DNA from: Candidatus Krumholzibacteriia bacterium
Lineage (GTDB): Bacteria; Krumholzibacteriota; Krumholzibacteriia; Krumholzibacteriales; Krumholzibacteriaceae
Assembly: GCA_963836185.1 (NCBI GenBank)
Contig: CAWIIQ010000001.1
Location: forward strand, 1,600,001 to 1,664,000
DNA: 64,000 nucleotides
Reading direction: 5' to 3'
The notes under the pieces are model-generated. The model was not told where the DNA came from. It made no database searches and was given only the letters and a program-made list of their open reading frames with translations. The translations under genes and the position numbers were made by a program. Shown one piece after another: positions 236 through 8,946 of the stretch. Within the stretch, counting starts at the first letter, position 1; each line of letters starts with the position of its first letter.

Positions 236-250
236 TATCCCCGGCAACAG

Positions 251-568
251 CTAACGGATAAAGAACATCACCGCGACGGCTCCCATTCCGAGCAGCGCGA
301 GCACCGACACCGATATGATCCCCGCCATCATTATCGTACGGATGAGCATCAGTCTTTTGGCTTCCTTGTAGGCTTCCATCTTGTCCTCCCATGTAAGTGG
401 AACAGGCGCGTCGCCGGGCAGCTTCATACCTGCCGTCTCTTTCGCCATCTCAGCCAGTTCGGGGTCCGTGTCGAGGTATTCCCTTACCAGCTTCTTCGTG
501 TCATCGCTCGCCTCTTCCTCGATGTAGAGCGGAAGCAGGTCGATTATCACATTCCTCGTAACCTCCAT
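251..568 (-). CDS. Membrane-anchored anti-sigma factor, zf-HC2-like N-terminus lacking Cys/His ligands
   Basis: 'IIDLLPLYIEEEASDDTKKLVREYL' resembles zf-HC2 anti-sigma N-termini; C-terminal hydrophobic helix; directly downstream of an ECF sigma gene; GGAGG RBS. Confidence 0.75.
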   Translation of the reverse strand: MEVTRNVIIDLLPLYIEEEASDDTKKLVREYLDTDPELAEMAKETAGMKLPGDAPVPLTWEDKMEAYKEAKRLMLIRTIMMAGIISVSVLALLGMGAVAVMFFIR

Positions 569-569
569 A

Positions 570-1052
570 TCAGGAAACCTCCTTTTTCATCCTGTCAGCG
601 AGCAGCCTTTTTCGTACTCTGTGGACCTTTACCTTCGCAGATGCGAGAGAGAGCCCTAGAATCCGGGCAATATCGGTGTATGGCAGTTCATGTTTTACAC
701 GGAGCACGAACGCGGTGCGGTCGCACTCGTGCATAGTAAGCAGGATCTGTTCGATCCTGCTCAGCTCATGTCTCGATTCTGTCACCCTGTCTGGGCCGGG
801 AGAGGGATCGGAGTGAATGTCATCCAGGTCAGCCATGCGGCTCTCTTTCCGCAACTGCATAAGGTACAGGTTTCTCGCTATCGATATGAGGTAGGCTTTG
901 AGTGTCTCAGTCCTGATATCTTCCCTGCGCGTCCAGGCTCGTATGATGGTCTCGGATGTGAGATCTTCCGCCTTCGCCCTGTCCCGGGAGATCCAGAGAG
1001 CGAATCGGTAGACGTCCTGAGAGTATGAATCGTACAGTTCCTGAAAATCCAT
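570..1052 (-). CDS. ECF-type RNA polymerase sigma factor
   Basis: Region 2 (AEDLTSETIIRAW...LISIARN) and region 4 (YTDIARILGLSLASAKVKVHR); start set at MDFQELY, 1058 also possible. Confidence 0.9.
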   Translation of the reverse strand: MDFQELYDSYSQDVYRFALWISRDRAKAEDLTSETIIRAWTRREDIRTETLKAYLISIARNLYLMQLRKESRMADLDDIHSDPSPGPDRVTESRHELSRIEQILLTMHECDRTAFVLRVKHELPYTDIARILGLSLASAKVKVHRVRKRLLADRMKKEVS

Positions 1053-1070
1053 CGTCATCCCTTCTCTGAG

Positions 1071-1102
1071 AATACTATGCATGAGAGGGGCAAAAGTTAC
1101 AA
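1071..1102 (-). promoter_or_regulatory. Candidate ECF-sigma autoregulatory promoter
   Basis: Minus strand TGTAACTTTT...CATAGTA just upstream of the sigma start; AAC in the -35 box is typical of ECF promoters. Confidence 0.4.
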
Positions 1103-1211
1103 TCAGGCGTGCATGAGGATTGTAAGGTGGATGGAATAAATGGGAGTGACGGGGGCCTCTGGCCCTGCCCCCGTGCATTTCAGGGGCGGGAGGCGGGAAC
1201 GGACTTTTAAT

Positions 1212-1239
1212 TTGAATTTGCCCGAAGGCGTGCTATAAT
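1212..1239 (+). promoter_or_regulatory. Sigma70-type promoter
   Basis: TTGAAT-16bp-TATAAT with extended -10 TG (TGCTATAAT). Confidence 0.6.
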
Positions 1240-1378
1240 CCCGCTGACGATTCTCAAGCGGAATATCAGAAAAAAATGATCAAAAACGAAACCCATCCGG
1301 GCGTAAGGGTTGCACCTGTCATTGCGTACAGGTGTGCCTACTCCATTTCACCACTATTCACATGAAGGAGGCAGAGCC

Positions 1379-3790
1379 ATGCGTATGAAGAGTAAGATCC
1401 TGATAGCCATCGTCTCATTGATAATGTTTCTGGGGACTCCCTCTCTTAAGGCTTTATGGATCGAGGATGGTATCGTAGTATGTACTGCAAGCGGTGTCCA
1501 GTATTTTCCCCGGATCATATCGGATGACCATGATGGTGCGATTATCGTATGGGAGGACGCCCGTGATATGTACCAGATGGTCTATGCACAGAAGGTGGAT
1601 TCCCATGGAAACGTTCAGTGGGTATCCGATGGTTTGTCCCTCACCACCGGGATAGAGGGGGACCACCAGTCCCCTGCGATGGCATCGGATGGTGCCGGCG
1701 GCGTGATCGTCACCTGGCACGATACTCGGAATTCATCTGAAGACATCTTTGTACAGAGAATCGATGCGGCAGGCAACGTTATGTGGGGACCTGGTGGGAC
1801 AGCAATCTGTACTGCCGCCGGAATGCAGTACAGTCCCGCTATCACGGCAGATGGCTCAGGTGGTGCGATTATTGTATGGGAGGACCTTCGGACCGGCGGT
1901 ATCAGAGACATCTACGCGCAGAAGATCGACGCGATGGGTGCCGTTCAGTGGACAGTTGACGGTGTGGCAATATGTACCGCTGCATTTAACCAGTATGATC
2001 CGAAAACCGTTTCAGACGGATCGGGCGGTGCGATCATCACGTGGCAGGATAACCGTAATTCTGAACATGACATCTATGCCCAGAAAATAACCGCGAGTGG
2101 CAATATCTCCTGGACGGCTGACGGCGTGCCGGTTTGCATTGTCTCTGGTGGACAGGATTACCCTGATCTTATTTCAGATGGTGGGGGTGGAGCGGTCATT
2201 GCCTGGTGGGATGAACGTGGGGGGCAGCATGATATCTACGCGCAACGTATACTCCATACTGGATCTGCCAGGTGGACCACTGGTGGTGTTCCCGTATGCG
2301 AGGCTGCCGGGAGCCAGGCGCTCCCCAGATTAGTCCCGGATGGCTCAGGCGGTGCAATCATCTCCTGGCATGATTTACGCGGTGCAACCGTTGATATCTA
2401 TGCCCAGAGGATTGACACATGGGGCAATGTCCTGTGGACGGTTGACGGCGTAGCCGTCTGCACGGCAGTTGGAACACAGGCCTATCCGGAAATCGCGCGG
2501 AACGGTACCGGGGGTGCGATCATCACATGGCAGGACGAACGTAGTTCGAACAGGAACATCTATGCACAATGTATAGATGCCGATGGAGACGTCCAGTGGG
2601 CGACTGACGGGGTGGCGCTCTGCATGGCCGGCTTGAACCAGTCCTATCCGATGATCGCTTATGACGGTTCGGGTGGTGCGATCGTCACATGGGAGGACAA
2701 TGGAAATGTCAACATCTATGCGCAGAGGATCGAGCGCAATGGCTACTGGGGCTACCCGGGTCCATATATACTGGCCGCACGGGATATCCCCGGCGATCAG
2801 GGAGGATTCGTAAACCTCTCCTGGGAGGCGAGCCGCCTTGATCCATGGCCTGAACAGGGCATCTCCAGCTATACCGTCTGGCGAGCTATCGGGGCGACAG
2901 GGATGGCTCCCATGATAGATGATGATACAGTCATCCTGACAGACATGTCTGATCTCAGCCATGGGATGGATGGGACTGTATTGCGTATGGAACAGACACC
3001 GACCGGCAATTTCTACTGGAAACTCATCTCGACGATCGATGTCTATTACCTTGAGTCATATTCGGAGATCGTCCCTACGCTTTTCGATTCGACCGCAACC
3101 AGCGATGAGCACCACTATTTCCAGGTGATCGCACATACAAGCGACCCTCTGGTATTCTGGATATCACCGCCGGACAGTGGATACTCGGTCGACAATCTCG
3201 CGCCGGCGGCTCCGCTGAGCTTCGCCGGAGAGCAGCTGTTTGTGCCTGAGGGACTGCAGCTGACCTGGGACCCAAACAACGAAACGGATCTCGCAGGCTA
3301 CAACATCTACCGTGGGACGAGTGAATCGTTTGAGCCCGGACCGGGCAGCTTTTTGACCTCGACGCCCGACACCTTCTCTCTCGACGATGGGTGGGACTGG
3401 TCAACGGGTTACTGGTACAAGGTCGCTGCCGTAGATGTCCACGGCAATGAGGGCGATTTCGCGGCGCTGGGTCCGGACATGCTCACTGGCGATGATCCAA
3501 AGCCGCTGCCCGACGCGTCATTCCTCGCGCAGAACTTTCCCAATCCCTTCAATCCACAGACTATGATCCGCTTCGGATTGAAGGAGGCATCACATGTGTC
3601 GCTGAGGATCTACGATCCGGCAGGGCGACTTGTCCGGGTGCTTGTTGACGGGCAGAGAGATACAGGGCAGTACGAGGAGCGATGGGGCGGGCTTGATGAT
3701 GCAGGGAGGAGTGTAGCAAGTGGCATCTTTTTCTACCGCCTTGTCGCCGGCAATTTCGTGCAGACCAGGAAGATGGTTTTTCTACGATAA
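1379..3790 (+). CDS. Secreted beta-propeller repeat protein with Fn3-like and C-terminal FlgD-Ig/T9SS type A-like sorting domain
   Basis: AAGGAGG RBS; signal peptide; 8 repeats of ~54 aa (SDGxGGAIIxWxDxR...DIYAQRID.xG..W..G..C); C-terminal 'LAQNFPNPFNP...SGIFFYRL...TRKMVFLR'. Confidence 0.85.
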   Translation: MRMKSKILIAIVSLIMFLGTPSLKALWIEDGIVVCTASGVQYFPRIISDDHDGAIIVWEDARDMYQMVYAQKVDSHGNVQWVSDGLSLTTGIEGDHQSPAMASDGAGGVIVTWHDTRNSSEDIFVQRIDAAGNVMWGPGGTAICTAAGMQYSPAITADGSGGAIIVWEDLRTGGIRDIYAQKIDAMGAVQWTVDGVAICTAAFNQYDPKTVSDGSGGAIITWQDNRNSEHDIYAQKITASGNISWTADGVPVCIVSGGQDYPDLISDGGGGAVIAWWDERGGQHDIYAQRILHTGSARWTTGGVPVCEAAGSQALPRLVPDGSGGAIISWHDLRGATVDIYAQRIDTWGNVLWTVDGVAVCTAVGTQAYPEIARNGTGGAIITWQDERSSNRNIYAQCIDADGDVQWATDGVALCMAGLNQSYPMIAYDGSGGAIVTWEDNGNVNIYAQRIERNGYWGYPGPYILAARDIPGDQGGFVNLSWEASRLDPWPEQGISSYTVWRAIGATGMAPMIDDDTVILTDMSDLSHGMDGTVLRMEQTPTGNFYWKLISTIDVYYLESYSEIVPTLFDSTATSDEHHYFQVIAHTSDPLVFWISPPDSGYSVDNLAPAAPLSFAGEQLFVPEGLQLTWDPNNETDLAGYNIYRGTSESFEPGPGSFLTSTPDTFSLDDGWDWSTGYWYKVAAVDVHGNEGDFAALGPDMLTGDDPKPLPDASFLAQNFPNPFNPQTMIRFGLKEASHVSLRIYDPAGRLVRVLVDGQRDTGQYEERWGGLDDAGRSVASGIFFYRLVAGNFVQTRKMVFLR

Positions 3791-3876
3791 CGAGTATCGT
3801 CAAGACAAACACGCCCTGGCGACGCAATTCAACCCAATCGAGCGTCGGGGGGACACCATTTGATTGGCTGATCGGG

Positions 3877-3902
3877 TGGACTTCCCCCGGTTCACTAGAC
3901 AC
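3877..3902 (+). mobile_element. Possible orphan IS3-family terminal inverted repeat
   Basis: TGGACTTCCCCCGGTTCACTAGACAC resembles IS3-family ends (TG...CCCCGG...GGACA pattern); no partner repeat or transposase seen. Confidence 0.3.
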
Positions 3903-3985
3903 TCTATTACGATGCCTAGGAGAATACGTCCAAGGGTTACAAGAAGGAGACGCAAGGCTGATCCGCCTAACTCATTGGAAGTAAA

Positions 3986-4040
3986 TGGTGCCGGAGCCGG
4001 GAATCGAACCCGGATGAGGTTGCCCCCAGGGGATTTTGAG
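3986..4040 (-). repeat. tRNA-Leu 3'-half fragment, att copy 1 (52/55 identical to the gene)
   Basis: Matches 8860-8914 from CCA to the anticodon loop; 3 substitutions, all in the variable-arm region. Confidence 0.95.
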
Positions 4041-4220
4041 ACGGGAAACCGAGTATTTGGAAATCGTTGATTTTCAACTACATATATCCGACAACAGAAT
4101 CTGAGAACGATTTGAATATGTTCGTTTTTGTACGAATATGTTTGATGTTATCAGGCACAATTTAGGCACAATTCTCATGCTACAATCATTTTGACACCCG
4201 CACCTGCCTTGGCTAGAATC
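4041..4220 (+). repeat. Conserved att-arm/promoter module, copy 1
   Basis: Colinear with 6701-6878 (about 129/180 by manual alignment, one 2-nt gap); contains AGGCACAATTT-AGGCACAATT at 4153-4173. Confidence 0.9.
4191..4219 (+). promoter_or_regulatory. Sigma70 promoter within arm module 1
   Basis: TTGACA(4191-4196)-17bp-TAGAAT(4214-4219); ATG at 4229 with no SD, so likely near-leaderless. Confidence 0.8.
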
Positions 4221-4228
4221 ATCTCACC

Positions 4229-6614
4229 ATGCTAGGGGAAACAATATCTCATTATAGAATCTTAGATAAGCTCGGACAGGGCGGGATGGGTATGGTCTAT
4301 CGTGCAGTTGACACGAAGCTGGACCGCAAGGTGGCAATAAAGTTCCTGCCCGTTCATCTAAGCTCTGATCCCGATGCGACAAAGAGGTTCATACACGAGG
4401 CTAAGGCCGCCTCGGCGATCGATCACTCAAACATCGGGACGATCTATGAAATAGATGAGACCGAGGATGGAGTCACTTTCATCGTAATGGCTCTCTACGA
4501 CGGAGAGACACTTCGCGAGAGGATTGACAGAGGAGAGCTCAGTGTAGAGGAATCGATCGATATAGCATCCCAGATCGCCTCTGGCCTTTCAAAAGCACAC
4601 CAGAAGGACATCGTCCACAGGGACATAAAGCCATCTAACATAATCATCACGAGCGATGGGGAAGTGAAGATAATCGACTTCGGACTGGCCAAGCTTGCCG
4701 GCCGGACGAGACTGACCAAGGAGGCGAGTACGCTCGGAACAGCCGCCTACATGTCGCCCGAGCAGGCAAGGGGGGAAGAAGTAGATCACCGATCTGATAT
4801 TTTCTCTCTCGGAGTAATGTTCTACGAGATGCTTTCCGGTGAGCCTCCTTTCAAGGGTGAACACGAGGCGGCGCTTCTCTATTGTATAGTCCATGAGGAA
4901 ATAAAGCCGATCTGTGAGATTCGACACCAGCTGCCAGACACTCTGGCAGAGATAGTGTGTAGGTGTCTCGCGAAGGAGCCATCGGACCGCTTCGGGCATA
5001 CATCAGAGCTTGCCGCGCGCCTGAAGGAATTTTCCATGCAATCTTCCGGCGGCTCGTACAGGAAGCCGAGCGGGAATAGCATGATCAGGAAACTTCTGGT
5101 AATTCTCATCATCGCTGCATGCCTGATCGCTATCAGTGTGTTTGTCGTAAAAAGGTTGACAAGAGATCATATCGAAATAGAACAAAAACTGACCGCTGTG
5201 GACAACGAACTGGCCCGGCGCTGGAGCCATTCAATAGCAGTGCTCCCCTTCAGGGATTTTAGTTCCGGACAAGACCAGGCACATGTCTGCCTGGGTATAA
5301 CTGATGCTGTAAACGGTATCCTGTCGGAAATTCACGAGCTCAAGGTCATTTCGACCACATCTGTGATGAAGTTCAAGGAAACAGAGACTGATATAAAGGA
5401 TATAGGGGCCGATCTAGGAGTTGGAAATATTCTGGAAGGAACTGTTCAAAAGGAAGGAAACAGGATACGAGTCAGGGCGCAGCTCATAGAGACGGAGACC
5501 GGTTTTCACCTGTGGGCTGACACGTACGATGAGCGTTACGAAAACGTGTTTGAGGTGCAGGACAAGATTTCGCATGCGATAGCGCAGGCATTGAAACTCG
5601 AGCTGGTCCAGGGCTCGAAAAGATCCGCTGAGACCCTGCGAAGCAACATCGAAGCGTACGAGTACTACACGAGGGGGATATATCTCGTTAAGAGCAAATA
5701 CGTGATCACATTCGAAGAAGCTGACTTCCAGGCCGGGATCGATGCTGCATCGGACTATAGAGATCGATCCAAATTACGCAATGGCGTATTTTGGATTAGT
5801 CTGGGCCTTTGAGCACCATTTCCAGGTGACTGACAGCAAGAGCGACGCCGATAGTGTGAAATATTATGCCGAGAGAGCATATGCTCTGGATCCTGAGTCG
5901 GCGACAATGAACGCGATGAAGGGATATGTTCTCTACGTACACGAAAATGAACGCGATAAAGCCTTTAAGTATTTGCAGAAGGCTCTCGAGATCAATCCCA
6001 ATATCGGCGATGTGAACTTCCTGGCAGGTACATGTCTTCTCTACCACGGGCTGTACGAGCAAGCCTTGAGATTTCTACAGAGGTCTTCATCACTGGACCC
6101 TTATTACTTCTGGACACCATACAAGATCGCTATCTGCTACATGAACATGGACGATTTCGAAAATGCCGCACATTACTTCGAGGAATATTTTGAGCTGGCA
6201 CCAGTGGCACTCATGTTTCCGGGCAGATATATTTCTCTCATGGTACAGATGAACAATCTCGAAAGGGTCGAGGAACTCATCAGCGAAATGCAAAAAACAC
6301 ATCCGAACTATGGCGGGTTACCTTACTGCAAGGCCCTGCTCTTCGCTGCACGTGGAGAGAAGAAAGAAGCGCTGGCCCTTTATAGAAATTCCGCGATACT
6401 GGCGATGCTCGATATGAAGGATGAAGCAATAGCGGCTCTGAATAGAGAGATCCGTGGAACGAGAAGAAATCCCTTCATATTCTACAGGGATCTGCTCACT
6501 AATCCTTTTTACAACAACCTAAGGGATGATGATCACTTCAAAGAGATGCTGGCAGGAGAACAGGACTTGTACGACGAGACTGTTGCAAAGTACAGCTACT
6601 TCAATGACCTGTGA
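4229..6614 (+). CDS. Hanks-type Ser/Thr protein kinase-TM-TolB_N-like-TPR protein, split by a frameshift near 5740
   Basis: LGQGGMG, VAIK, HRDIKPSN, DFG, YMSPE; TM helix; 'SIAVLPF...ILEGTVQ...WADTYD'; TPRs continue in ORF 5742-6614. Confidence 0.9.
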
Positions 6615-6645
6615 CAATACTTCGATGGAATATGTCGGGTAATAA

Positions 6646-6700
6646 TGGTGCCGGAGCCGGGAATCGAACCCGGATGGAGTTGCCCCCGGGGGATTTTGAG
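6646..6700 (-). repeat. tRNA-Leu 3'-half fragment, att copy 2 (55/55 identical)
   Basis: Exact match to 8860-8914, ending at anticodon loop CTCAAAA. Confidence 0.95.
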
Positions 6701-6878
6701 ACGGTACATAGAGTATTCGTAATTTATTGATTTTCAACTATATATCCGGCAACAGATTCTGAAGGCGTTTTGGATATATTCGTCTTTGTTTGGATATATT
6801 TGATATTCGTAGGCACAATTTAGGCACAATTCACATCTTCACGTTGATTTGACACCCAGGCACTGCACATGTAGTATC
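6701..6878 (+). repeat. Conserved att-arm/promoter module, copy 2
   Basis: Perfect IHF consensus TAATTTATTGATT (6720-6732); TTTGGATATATT twice (6769, 6789); AGGCACAATT twice (6811-6831). Confidence 0.9.
6849..6877 (+). promoter_or_regulatory. Sigma70 promoter within arm module 2
   Basis: TTGACA(6849-6854)-17bp-TAGTAT(6872-6877), same register as in module 1. Confidence 0.8.
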
Positions 6879-6937
6879 AGTACATCTTCCTAGGAAAAAC
6901 TACAAAAGCTGAATACCAGGGGCACAGGGGGAACACA

Positions 6938-7813
6938 ATGGGCAAGAGAATATTGCTATTGATCGCATCGGTCTTCATCGCAGGTGCTTCAGCGCACCAG
7001 GTCGTGAAAGCGGGATCGGAGCCACCAGCAAAAGGTGCTGCTGATATAGCCTCGCCCGGGCACTCCCAGGATATCAACAAGATCGTGGCCTTTGGAGACA
7101 GTTTTACAGATAACGGTCATGTTGATGGCCACGGCTTTAACAGAGATACAAATGGGAAAGTCTGGGTCGAATATTTATCGGATATGCTGAATTGTGATAA
7201 TTTGGACAACAGGGCTTGGGGTGGTGCTAGAACTGATTCAGGTCATTTTGCTGGACTGGATTGGTCGGGTTTCAATTGGCAGGTTGAAAACTATTCGATG
7301 ACATCTGAACCAGCAAAAACTCTTTATACAATCAGGATCGGAATAAACGACTACTGGGATGCAAAAGATGATCCCGCTCGCTCGGTATCAAATATTTAGA
7401 AAGGAATTCAAAGGCTAATTGAAAAAGGAGCAAAGAGGCTTGTCGTTTTTAACAACTTTGATCTGACATCAGCGCCAGGATATGGTCCGGAAACTGAGTA
7501 TCATGATCTAATACCGCAAGTTCGGGTATTGATATCTGAGTTCAACGATGAAATATCTGAAATGTTATTGAATGAAGAAACCGGATTAATTGTGAAATCC
7601 CCTGATGTAGAGATCACATTCATCGATATTTTTACTTTTATGAATGAATTGATCAAGAGTGAAAAATATTCGAATACTGATACCCCCTGGAAGGACTCGT
7701 ACAAATTTCCTCACCCTGATGAATTCTTATGGTATGACGAATGGCATCCAATGACCAGCTGCCACTTGGAAATTGCAAAATTTGTCCACAAGAAACTGGA
7801 ATTGAGAAAATAA
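6938..7813 (+). pseudogene. Secreted SGNH/GDSL hydrolase interrupted by an in-frame TAG (7397-7399)
   Basis: Block I 'VAFGDSFTD', block III 'GIND', block V 'WYDEWHP'; ORFs 6938-7399 and 7529-7813 share a frame and read through as NI*KGIQRLIEKGAKR. Confidence 0.8.
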
Positions 7814-7867
7814 GGCGTTTACAATACAAAGGGTTCAACGTTTTGTTAACAGAAGGAGGAGTTAAAA

Positions 7868-8824
7868 ATGAAGAATACCTTTAATCGCAGAACGTTCTTA
7901 AAATTGGGTGCTCTCTCTTCCGCTTCTTTTATCGCATCCAGAAATTTATTTGGAATGAATCATCCTTTTACGTTGATATCTGAAAATGAAGGAGAATCAT
8001 GCCGTTTTAAGATTGGTGATCTTGAATGCTATTGTATAAACGACGGTGGCTTTGATTATGGTTATGACCACTTTTTTAAAAATGTCCCTGAAGAACAAGT
8101 TGAAAAAGTCTTAAGTGAACATAACTTACCTACTGGACCTATTTATACACCCTATACACATCTTATTGTTAAAAATGGAGAACAACTGATTCTTGTTGAT
8201 ATGGGAGCCGGGAATGTGTTGCCAAATAATGGCAAACTACCCATTACCATGAAATCTATCGGAATTGAACCATCTGAGATAGATACCATCATCATTACAC
8301 ACGCACATCCTGATCATATTGGTGGTACGCTTGATGATAAGGGAGAGCCTGTTTATGCCAATGCTCGTTACTATATGTGGAAAGGCGAGTGGGATTTCTG
8401 GTTTTCTGATAAGGCCTTTGACAAAACCTATGAATTCTTTGTGAATACAGCACGTGAACAACTCAGTCCCATCAAAGACAGGATGAATTTTCTAGAAGAA
8501 GAATCCGAGATCTTTCCCGGAGTTAACATAATCGAAGCTTCCGGACATACTCCCGGTCATATAGTCGTGTCATTTTCCTCAAAAGATGAACACCTATATT
8601 ACATCGGGGACACAGTATTATATCCTTTGCATCTGGAATATCCTGATTGGTTACCCATATATGACATTTTGCCCGATAAGGCCGAGGCCAGTAAAAGGAA
8701 GATTTTCGATCTTGTTGCGAGGGAGAACGCCTGGGTAATAGGGCAGCATTTTGTTCCGTTTCCAAGTCTCGGGCACGTAGTAAAAAAGGGAGATGGATGG
8801 CTGTTTCAGCCGATAAAGAAATAA
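7868..8824 (+). CDS. Tat-exported MBL-fold metallohydrolase (AHL-lactonase/methyl-parathion-hydrolase-like)
   Basis: Tat motif NRRTFLK; THAHPDH, GHTPGH, GD, QH; AGGAGG RBS. Confidence 0.9.
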   Translation: MKNTFNRRTFLKLGALSSASFIASRNLFGMNHPFTLISENEGESCRFKIGDLECYCINDGGFDYGYDHFFKNVPEEQVEKVLSEHNLPTGPIYTPYTHLIVKNGEQLILVDMGAGNVLPNNGKLPITMKSIGIEPSEIDTIIITHAHPDHIGGTLDDKGEPVYANARYYMWKGEWDFWFSDKAFDKTYEFFVNTAREQLSPIKDRMNFLEEESEIFPGVNIIEASGHTPGHIVVSFSSKDEHLYYIGDTVLYPLHLEYPDWLPIYDILPDKAEASKRKIFDLVARENAWVIGQHFVPFPSLGHVVKKGDGWLFQPIKK

Positions 8825-8859
8825 CGGCAGGAGGATCTGCCTGACCCGTTGATACCAAA

Positions 8860-8946
8860 TGGTGCCGGAGCCGGGAATCGAACCCGGATGGAGTTGCCCC
8901 CGGGGGATTTTGAGTCCCCTGCGTCTACCAGTTTCACCACTCCGGC
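8860..8946 (-). tRNA. tRNA-Leu(CAA)
   Basis: GCCGGAG acceptor stem, GGGGA-CTCAAAA-TCCCC anticodon arm, long variable arm, GTTCGATT, encoded CCA. Confidence 0.97.

Follow-up and report, generated by a model that had tools for sequence, protein, structure and literature searches.

The window analysed here, a 64,000-nucleotide stretch of a Candidatus Krumholzibacteriia genome, carries an intact tRNA-Leu(CAA) gene and two displaced copies of its 55-bp 3' half, which match it at 55/55 and 52/55 positions (E values of 1e-22 for 6646-6700 and 3e-18 for 3986-4040) and share its orientation, as fragments displaced at tRNA islands do (Table 1). Identity ends at 8914, 6700 and 4040, in each case the first base of the 7-nt anticodon loop. 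The copies delimit two units, A (2660 bp) and B (2214 bp), each having a tRNA 3' half and an inner arm as its boundaries. No recombinase or mobilization genes were found in either unit by Pfam/NCBIfam searches of the cargo or by tblastn with two integrases of the family described below. An earlier sequence-only reading of this DNA, which had reported the recurring half tRNA, its end at the anticodon loop, and recombinase-less units of 2.2 and 2.7 kb with co-oriented, unlike cargoes, was confirmed on all these points.

Table 1. Features at the tRNA-Leu(CAA) locus (window coordinates)
Feature	Position	Strand	Basis or remark
Beta-propeller protein gene, T9SS-type tail	1379..3790	+	Domain search
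Near-core P' (tRNA-side) arm relic, putative third, older unit farther from tRNA	3943..3985	.	0/1000 shuffles as high
tRNA-Leu 3' half, 52/55	3986..4040	-	Sequence match
Module A, predicted inner (P) att arm + promoter	4041..4219	+	Alignment, motif search
Module A IHF-like site	4060-4072		
Module A tandem repeat	4154-4170		
Module A kinase promoter TTGACA-17-TAGAAT	4191-4219		9 nt before ATG
Ser/Thr kinase - transmembrane - TPR gene, unit A cargo	4229..6614	+	Pfam/NCBIfam
Spacer, 31 bp, P' arm sequence undetectable	6615..6645	.	948/1000 shuffles score as high
tRNA-Leu 3' half, 55/55, A/B unit junction	6646..6700	-	Sequence match
Module B, predicted inner (P) att arm + promoter	6701..6877	+	Alignment, motif search
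Module B IHF-like site	6720-6732		
Module B tandem repeat	6812-6828		
Module B promoter TTGACA-17-TAGTAT	6849-6877		
GDSL hydrolase gene, unit B	6938..7813	+	Pfam; frame read-through
MBL-fold metallo-hydrolase gene, unit B cargo	7868..8824	+	Pfam Lactamase_B
Near-core P' arm remnant of unit B	8825..8859	.	Local score 25, 4/1000 shuffles as high
Intact tRNA-Leu(CAA)	8860..8946	-	ARAGORN
Anticodon loop CTCAAAA (7 nt), predicted 7-bp overlap	8908-8914		Inside tRNA-Leu(CAA); identity ends at 8914

Arms, cargo and assembly of the array

The attachment sites of units A and B retain their cores and inner arms; the tRNA-side arm is partial in B and absent in A. Alignment with full arms shows that the remnant in B lacks the distal GGYACA repeat pair present in relatives. 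The sequence-only reading had drawn attention to stop codons 31-35 bp from the next tRNA copy; the distances (31 and 35 bp) are correct, but they reflect deletion of the tRNA-side arm. Loss of this arm should disable both units, which are probably immobile now through such trimming. A further arm relic at 3943-3985, missed by that reading, resembles the arm of genome G005, and the variable-arm allele of the adjoining 52/55 tRNA copy resembles those of same-genus genomes (G002, G003 and G005). The beta-propeller gene is probably the cargo of this third unit; it is unmatched at the equivalent locus in G003, G021 and G007, and an outer boundary of the unit was sought and not found. We infer that B is the newest insertion, followed by A and then by the unit that left the relic.

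The kinase gene of unit A reads as split by a frameshift near 5740, which may be an assembly error; 2 of 17 neighbouring distinct conserved genes are likewise split. The GDSL gene has an in-frame TAG at 7397-7399 in the assembly and a sense codon there in contigs of read runs X1 and X5. The sequence-only reading had noted neither interruption. The MBL-fold hydrolase is lactonase-like, with scores that fall below the family cut-offs (NCBIfam AidB/YtnP, sub-threshold), and its gene has a GC content of 39.6%. The cargo DNA of unit B finds no match in the 51 other genomes of the order, and what is probably the remnant of a kinase start lies just after module B (12/21 identity; 104/5000 shuffles as high).

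That the repeats are an assembly artefact is hardly credible and already largely refuted. The assembly does carry indel errors, as in the split neighbouring genes, and the A-B junction is bridged by no contig among those listed. Against this, the copies are diverged and flanked by unique DNA, relatives have the same architecture, in contigs of runs X1 and X4 the hydrolase gene continues into the tRNA 3' half, and one X1 contig connects module B to the GDSL gene. This check covered the contigs of 4 of 20 runs. Run X4 covers unit B and has nothing over 5025-6594, which, coming from contigs only, is silent on the absence of unit A; one weak X4 contig (depth 3.8, 28 letters on its short side) connects ~6942 to 7771. 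Circle junctions and empty sites, which the earlier reading had proposed to look for, appear in none of the contigs of these 4 runs.

The module and a family of tyrosine integrases

Both tRNA copies had been described as followed by the same ~180-bp module. A module does follow each copy, but the two are not identical, agreeing at 79% over 150 bp and at 78% globally. The module is a composite of a predicted ~130-bp att arm (tandem GGCACA repeat, IHF-like site) and the cargo kinase's own promoter. This type of promoter is also found upstream of 3 of 9 kinases elsewhere in the same genome; it belongs to the kinase and is not an att-linked, Pc-like promoter; its ownership had escaped the sequence-only reading, which had counted the promoter as part of a cassette. 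In the six contigs of this genome (E<1) the module occurs only at the two window places, and relatives supplied the further copies that had been anticipated, nine modules in all. The conserved tandem repeat and an IHF-like match, both putative sites, are present in 7 of the 9, the latter called with the IHF consensus. Conservation is 99% per column in the arm repeat versus 76% in the remainder of the nine modules, a figure partly ascertained by the search pattern. Roles for arm, IHF site and core are proposed from position and conservation, and the proposed att-arm nature of the module is supported by a match of its repeat to that in the gene ends of an integrase family.

The cognate integrase likely belongs to this family of ~360-aa tyrosine integrases. 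The 3' end of the integrase gene encodes the tRNA-side tandem arm repeat at all 30 best loci, 10 of which lie at a Leu(CAA) core, 7 of those 10 with the GGCACA pair; the G503 gene contains the exact P' repeat in frame, and the arm motif occurs in 106/120 homolog tails. A search of solved structures with a family integrase returned two weak Xer-like matches only. Family members were chosen as probes because XerC, XerD and IntI are too distant: these found no integrase at relatives' loci, a result that does not exclude island integrases. The search for an autonomous element with the same arm, suggested by the sequence-only reading, succeeded in part. Genome G184 holds a complete 10.4-kb autonomous element that shares this att layout and has primase-polymerase and helicase genes, but the integrase lies at the tRNA end (also in G027 and G503) and not behind the module. 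No relaxase or conjugation family was matched among the 7 ORFs of this element, the one complete example of the parent type. In phage contigs the arm repeat flanks att sites on either side; none of the viral contigs has the full tRNA-plus-arm pattern or the G027 integrase. These shared arms support a derivation of the units from the integrase-bearing family.

The sequence-only reading had taken the array for an integron-like platform, in which minimal units of arm, promoter and cargo individually excise and integrate with an integrase acting in trans. The small, uniform size of the units (2.2-3.1 kb), their co-oriented and varied cargo, the conserved arm repeat and the stacking of units in tandem, seen in at least 5 genomes or contigs, are all consistent with such a working system. 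We nevertheless consider it improbable: the distal P' repeats, present with each of the intact integrases examined, are missing from both window units, the promoter is that of the kinase, there is neither attC nor a fixed platform integrase, and no circles (in the contigs of 4 runs) or sign of order reshuffling were seen. The cognate integrase is missing from the window genome, which is 92.5% complete; its integrase-type genes are XerC, XerD and two IntI-like genes only, none inside the array and the nearest IntI-like gene >460 kb off. Among 208 Krumholzibacteriota genomes the family occurs in 6, with other arms or targets, and tRNA-Leu(CAA) itself yielded no helper with a GGYACA-type arm.

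Relatives and the history of the array

Cargo differs among relatives, as had been predicted, but not at random, as a Ser/Thr kinase lies behind 8 of the 9 modules. Contigs of most relatives break at tRNA-Leu(CAA). Relatives have tandem arrays in which different kinase genes are stacked, with collapsed junctions in G017, G025 and G028, an intact two-armed junction in G017 and both outer arms retained in a G025 composite. Modules A and B match one another (78%) no better than they match modules from other places (63-78%), so they did not come from a local duplication. The displaced fragments, the diverged modules and the unlike tRNA alleles that the window array and L095 each contain bear out the earlier proposal of serial integration at the anticodon loop. 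It is very improbable that a single ancient integration was followed only by recombination of homologous stretches, namely the tRNA copies and the N-terminal halves of the kinases, through unequal crossover and cargo swapping. The module and kinase N-terminus do form a long common homology block, the kinase domains are ~68% identical with unlike C-terminal halves, and the kinases linked to modules cluster with two kinases of the window genome that lie outside the array; but modules of the same array agree at 74-78% and are not near-identical, the arm repeats and IHF-like site are kept conserved, and tRNA alleles differ inside arrays.

A stronger contender, though still unlikely, is that ordinary autonomous islands, each equipped with an integrase gene of its own on the tRNA side, lost that gene in place and never moved without it. 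The autonomous relatives have exactly this layout, partial integrase remnants lie at tRNA-Leu(CAA) in G030 and one Desulfobacterium genome, and the missing arms and collapsed junctions reveal a strong local deletion bias. In addition, most P' relics share the position of an in-frame stop codon, which hints at divergence while coding, i.e., at repeated independent losses; codon-position counts on these relics gave 8/7/10 extra states overall and 7/7/8 after the repeat, the synonymous excess being biased by the search pattern. However, none of the 7 complete units contains integrase sequence in family-integrase searches, and none of 8 full P' arms in Krumholzibacteriota is preceded by it or retains so much as the 15 codons that lead up to the repeat. 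Genomes G005 and G025, of different genera, share 69/72 bases (96%) just inside the integrase-less P' arm, and in two G017 units the kinase ends are unlike each other, yet the P' arms that follow ~20 bp later are nearly the same. The integrase-free arms and the end common to two genera favour a non-autonomous lineage. In G006, a tRNA variable arm and P' arm resembling other genera, beside a genus-typical T-arm, only suggest transfer between genera.

We hold with moderate confidence that the array arose by CIME-type accretion followed by decay, in which integrase-less islands were inserted serially by borrowed integrases, stacked, and later trimmed to immobility. Counting against this are the failure to find a helper with a GGYACA-type arm at this tRNA in Krumholzibacteriota, the absence of circle junctions and empty sites from the contigs of 4 runs, and the shared stop position in the P' relics. 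An ancestral family element would have acquired a Ser/Thr kinase, promoter included, on the inward side of the inner arm; later loss of the integrase as far as the arm repeat would have left a two-armed non-autonomous unit. Such units could spread as CIMEs, a helper integrating alongside at the tRNA and the composite excising and transferring; the helper may leave afterwards, and an integrase supplied in trans would yield an equal product. Every arrival would replace the tRNA 3' half and displace older units outward. Cargo may be exchanged, as perhaps in unit B, where the probable kinase-start relic precedes low-GC hydrolase genes, and deletions would strip arms and make junctions collapse, so that the genes become fixed. 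A hot spot would result in which kinases and other accessory genes accumulate. More tentatively, the two-armed units might form a single mini-element family that lost its integrase once and borrows integrases across Krumholzibacteriota genera, a MITE-like shuttle expanding and diversifying Ser/Thr kinase-TPR receptor genes at tRNA-Leu(CAA). Ser/Thr kinases are expanded in this lineage, and movement of two-armed units by borrowed integrases would explain how it multiplies signalling kinases at one site.

Comparison with known systems

Like integron gene cassettes, the window units are small, hold one or two genes in a common orientation, lie in a row and bring no recombinase of their own. Unlike cassettes, they have no attC hairpin, attI or adjacent intI, and appear to use double-stranded arm-type sites; no attC-like inverted repeat of at least 20 bp at the unit ends is among the matches listed, the ends being tRNA halves. 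Nor are they promoterless, each having its own promoter-like site, common to non-array kinases.

Among reports on Krumholzibacteri genomic islands, judged by title and abstract start within open-access main texts, none concerned this arrangement. Island finders that require an integrase miss att-bounded, integrase-less units, whose share of the accessory genome is poorly counted outside streptococci. The site-A tyrosine-integrase islands of Islander, in excerpts of PMC4383910, likewise show a regenerated tRNA with a displaced 3' fragment, an anticodon-centred crossover and tandem arrays, but only units with their own integrase are counted, and the window units would be filtered out. The locus also offers a testable system, with an integrase family bearing the arm repeat in its own 3' end and natural two-armed and arm-less substrates.

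The ssrA islands of Dehalococcoides, as excerpted from PMC3146451, likewise follow a structural RNA gene in tandem; 15 of them lack an integration module, and they pile up one gene family (rdhA paralogs there, kinases here). They differ in their tmRNA target, 20-bp repeat and serine recombinase module, as opposed to the tRNA anticodon loop, 55-bp repeat, tyrosine-integrase arms and smaller units seen here. The closest parallel is with CIMEs, described in parts of PMC5704250 and PMC7563491 as att-bounded, recombinase-less units of 1.2-13 kb with tandem accretion in streptococci. Here too, cargo-bearing units of this kind are stacked at one target gene and are most decayed farthest from it. Unlike CIMEs, however, with their ICE or IME parents, the one complete parent-type element here has primase-polymerase and helicase genes and no relaxase match, no unit was seen in tandem with an integrase-bearing helper, the window units have lost tRNA-side arm repeats, and one kinase family dominates the cargo. 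With these differences, the arrangement fits a further example of a known island-building route, that of CIMEs and tandem accretion.

The stacked units and their modules

In this 3.5-Mb genome (completeness 92.5%), the 3' 55 bp of tRNA-Leu(CAA) recur twice. As the sequence-only reading had described, both copies lose identity to the tRNA at base 1 of the 7-nt anticodon loop, and each is followed by a module. This module consists of two parts, an inner (P) att arm and a kinase promoter. The modules had been taken as the same ~180-bp sequence; they are related but not identical (79% over 150 bp), and a search of the whole genome found no third copy.

Features of the locus and of the loci compared with it (window coordinates unless a locus is named)
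Feature	Position	Strand	Remark
tRNA-Leu(CAA)	8860-8946	minus	
First tRNA 3' copy	6646-6700		55/55 bases identical
Second tRNA 3' copy	3986-4040		52/55 bases identical
Unit A			2660 bp; cargo kinase-TPR
Unit B			2214 bp; cargo GDSL + MBL-fold hydrolase
P' near-core block	8825-8859		
P' near-core relic	3943-3985		
GDSL N-terminal part	6938-7080		143 bp; 54.5% GC
Stop in GDSL gene	7397		
Frameshift in unit A kinase	near 5740		
Variable region	236-8859		
Stretch also on a run X1 contig	3873-3905		33 bp
ECF sigma factor and small partner gene	251-1052	minus	
Integrase-less AbiEi/AbiEii unit	L093, 2293-5018		2.6 kb; oriented coordinates
IntI-like gene and kinase	G000:C1:1091779-1098981		
Integrase with arm-repeat tail	L182:1501-2595		

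Three of the order's 51 other genomes carry the module; a sequence-model search of the class detected it in 3 of 150 genomes, and four further copies lie on three metagenome contigs. Its first ~130 bp contain, in seven of nine modules, a candidate IHF site 19 bp from the core (the tRNA crossover region). They also hold the tandem repeat GGCACA-N5-GGCACA, at a distance of 112 bp from the core. Per column this repeat is 99% conserved, against 76% for the rest of the nine modules, a figure inflated by the fact that three of them were found by a repeat-containing pattern; its position and conservation point to a putative arm-type binding site. The last ~50 bp hold a promoter-like site, TTGACA-17-TAGAAT, 9 nt 5' of the kinase ATG. 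Since this promoter also precedes three of nine other, arm-less kinase genes examined in the host genome at equal spacing, it belongs to the kinase gene, and the first proposal of a promoter linked to the att arm is not supported.

A kinase start lies directly behind eight of the nine modules. The exception is unit B, where a 12/21-base match (104/5000 shuffles as high) is a probable relic of a kinase start. Pairwise identity among the modules is 58-78%, and that of A and B (78%) is no higher than that of B with the module of metagenome locus L095 (78%) or genome G025 (77%), so the two did not arise by recent duplication in place. Unit B has a GC content of 39.6%, compared with 56.5% for the contig. 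The N-terminal part of its GDSL gene is richer in GC than the remainder (39.6%), which suggests a host-type leader joined to a foreign gene. The stop in this gene is a sense codon in contigs of sequencing runs X1 and X5. The kinase frameshift of unit A may be an assembly error, as splits also affect 2 of the 17 distinct conserved genes nearby. Contigs from two studies (runs X1 and X4; 8 differences each) join the hydrolase to the tRNA 3' half, and the join of module B to GDSL is present in one X1 contig. Circle junctions and empty sites were absent from the contigs of 4 of 20 listed runs, in which rare forms are dropped.

Reduction of the tRNA-side arm

Relatives possess a second conserved arm (P') 3' of the tRNA, comprising GGYACA-N6-GGYACA ~80 bp out and then a near-core block. 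This pattern gave nine matches in 6 of 52 genomes, eight of them at the tRNA-Leu(CAA) locus, and its reversed control gave none. In the window the arm is reduced to the near-core block beside the tRNA (4/1000 shuffles as high). Another near-core relic, beside the second tRNA copy (0/1000), marks a third, older unit, and left of the first copy no remnant was detected (948/1000). The short distances from stop codon to tRNA are therefore deletion products. In G021 and G007 the gene ending at window position 235 lies at most one gene from the tRNA, and the gene content of G003 differs at this place, so the intervening region is variable. All 30 intact-type integrase loci examined have P' repeats; units A and B have none, and so are probably fixed and no longer mobile.

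The stretch shared in a different context with a run X1 contig presumably resembles an IS3-family terminal repeat, and in G019 an IS-like gene start directly precedes the P' arm. Homologs of the ECF sigma factor and its partner flank the hot spot in G015, G017, G023, and G025, with no match in G003, G007, or G021.

The integrase family and integrase-less units

The only integrase-type genes of the host genome are XerC, XerD, and two IntI-like genes. G027, a member of the family, encodes a tyrosine integrase of 348 aa that is directed towards tRNA-Leu(CAA) and whose gene ends in a tandem repeat. When this protein was searched against 401 genomes from the class to which a Desulfobacterium genome belongs, a tandem repeat closed the gene in 30 of the best 30 loci (motif variants picked after inspection); ten of these lie at a Leu(CAA) core, seven with a GGCACA pair. 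In G503 the integrase repeat matches the P' repeat of Krumholzibacteriota at every base and reads GTNPGT in frame, and such a repeat-encoded tail occurs in 106 of 120 homologs. The C-terminal motif G-T-x-x-G-T (or V-T-x-x-V-T) is the translated arm repeat (L182 and homologs). In an alignment of 65 proteins both Thr hardly vary, probably through DNA-level constraint, and the motif could allow arm sequences to be predicted from protein alone.

An autonomous element with the same att layout exists, though not in the host genome: G184 carries a complete 10.4-kb element. It runs from a tRNA fragment of 55 bp through an inner arm with a GGCAC pair, genes for a primase-polymerase and a helicase, and the integrase to tRNA-Leu(CAA). 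On phage contigs the module's repeat flanks att sites on both sides, with integrases adjoining. The inner-arm pattern also occurs without an adjoining integrase, at 19 loci from metagenomes, of which 14 are distinct, and in two Desulfobacterota genomes, as would follow from an integrase located at the opposite end. Autonomous elements at L200-L201, L202, L207, L212, and L213 have an inverted arm-like repeat pair ~0.5-0.7 kb before the integrase start.

Related units with other cargo do occur at tRNA-Leu in relatives, as tandem arrays: in G017 two contigs together hold four or more kinases, with one junction that is intact and two-armed and another that has collapsed, G025 and G028 have one fused-arm junction each, and L095 has one kinase between two modules. 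The L093 unit at tRNA-Leu(CAA) shares the inner arm repeat, and G161 has three such attR arms on separate contigs with toxin-antitoxin-like and ATPase cargo. In G014, G015, and G023 (L017, L023, L040) a 15-17 bp tRNA 3'-end duplication followed by a shared ~20-bp sequence is a different scar type. The tRNA-Leu of G006 (L020) combines a genus-typical 5' half and T-arm with a variable arm and a P' arm that resemble their counterparts in genera g11, g12, and g14. In G000 a frameshifted kinase 5.4 kb downstream of an IntI-like gene shares the promoter of the array kinases, and this family may also travel in an integron-like array there.

Movement without an own integrase is favoured by several findings. 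No integrase was found in any of seven units whose two ends share a contig (units A and B of the window and those of G017, G025, G028, L095, and L093), and the 15 codons preceding the repeat in the integrase are kept in none of eight full P' arms, which adjoin kinases, unnamed genes, and one putatively Mrr-like gene end. Just inside an integrase-less P' arm, G005 and G025, of different genera, have 69 of 72 bases in common, and tRNA alleles are mixed within arrays. Against it stand the distribution of the family (in the phylum, 6 of 208 genomes have such integrases, and their arm motifs or targets differ; the host has none), partial integrase remnants in G030 and a Desulfobacterium genome, and, more tentatively, an in-frame stop at one shared position in most P' relics. 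The sequence shared by G005 and G025, 72 bp inside the P' arm (L011, L060), presumably starts like an attC end, which would suggest cassette-derived cargo.

Probable accretion history and comparison with known islands

The displaced tRNA pieces, the arms, the differing cargo, and the link between integrase and repeat are observed; capture, transfer, order of arrival, and loss of mobility we infer, the history being most likely accretion of the type of cis-mobilizable elements (CIMEs). An element of this integrase family would have taken up a kinase on the inner side of one arm, the inner one, and lost the integrase. Two-armed derivatives may have been carried by helpers, integrase-bearing elements integrating at the same tRNA, acting in cis or supplying integrase in trans; the evidence here fits both. 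Each arrival would replace the tRNA 3' half and displace older units, and later deletions would strip the arms.

The locus, first envisaged as an integron-like platform, is not an integron and works like a CIME stack. By definition CIMEs have lost integration and transfer genes, while their att sites persist and successive units pile up by accretion (PMC5704250), the classical ones spanning 1.2-13 kb in the position farthest from the target (PMC7563491). The locus may be a CIME in the strict sense, which would need ICE or IME parents and sound att arms; the attL arms of the window are damaged. Dehalococcoides has 15 ssrA islands without a module, carrying rdhA paralogs (PMC3146451). Anticodon-centred crossover is the commonest tRNA site class, and Islander leaves out units without integrase (PMC4383910); passages of bioRxiv 10.64898/2026.01.13.699239 and PMC5812530 hold nothing specific to this arrangement. 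Our literature search found no paper on this locus. The window array is real and well defined, a variant of already known island-building; particular to it are an identified integrase family, in which the arm repeat forms the end of the coding sequence, and the recurrent kinase cargo.
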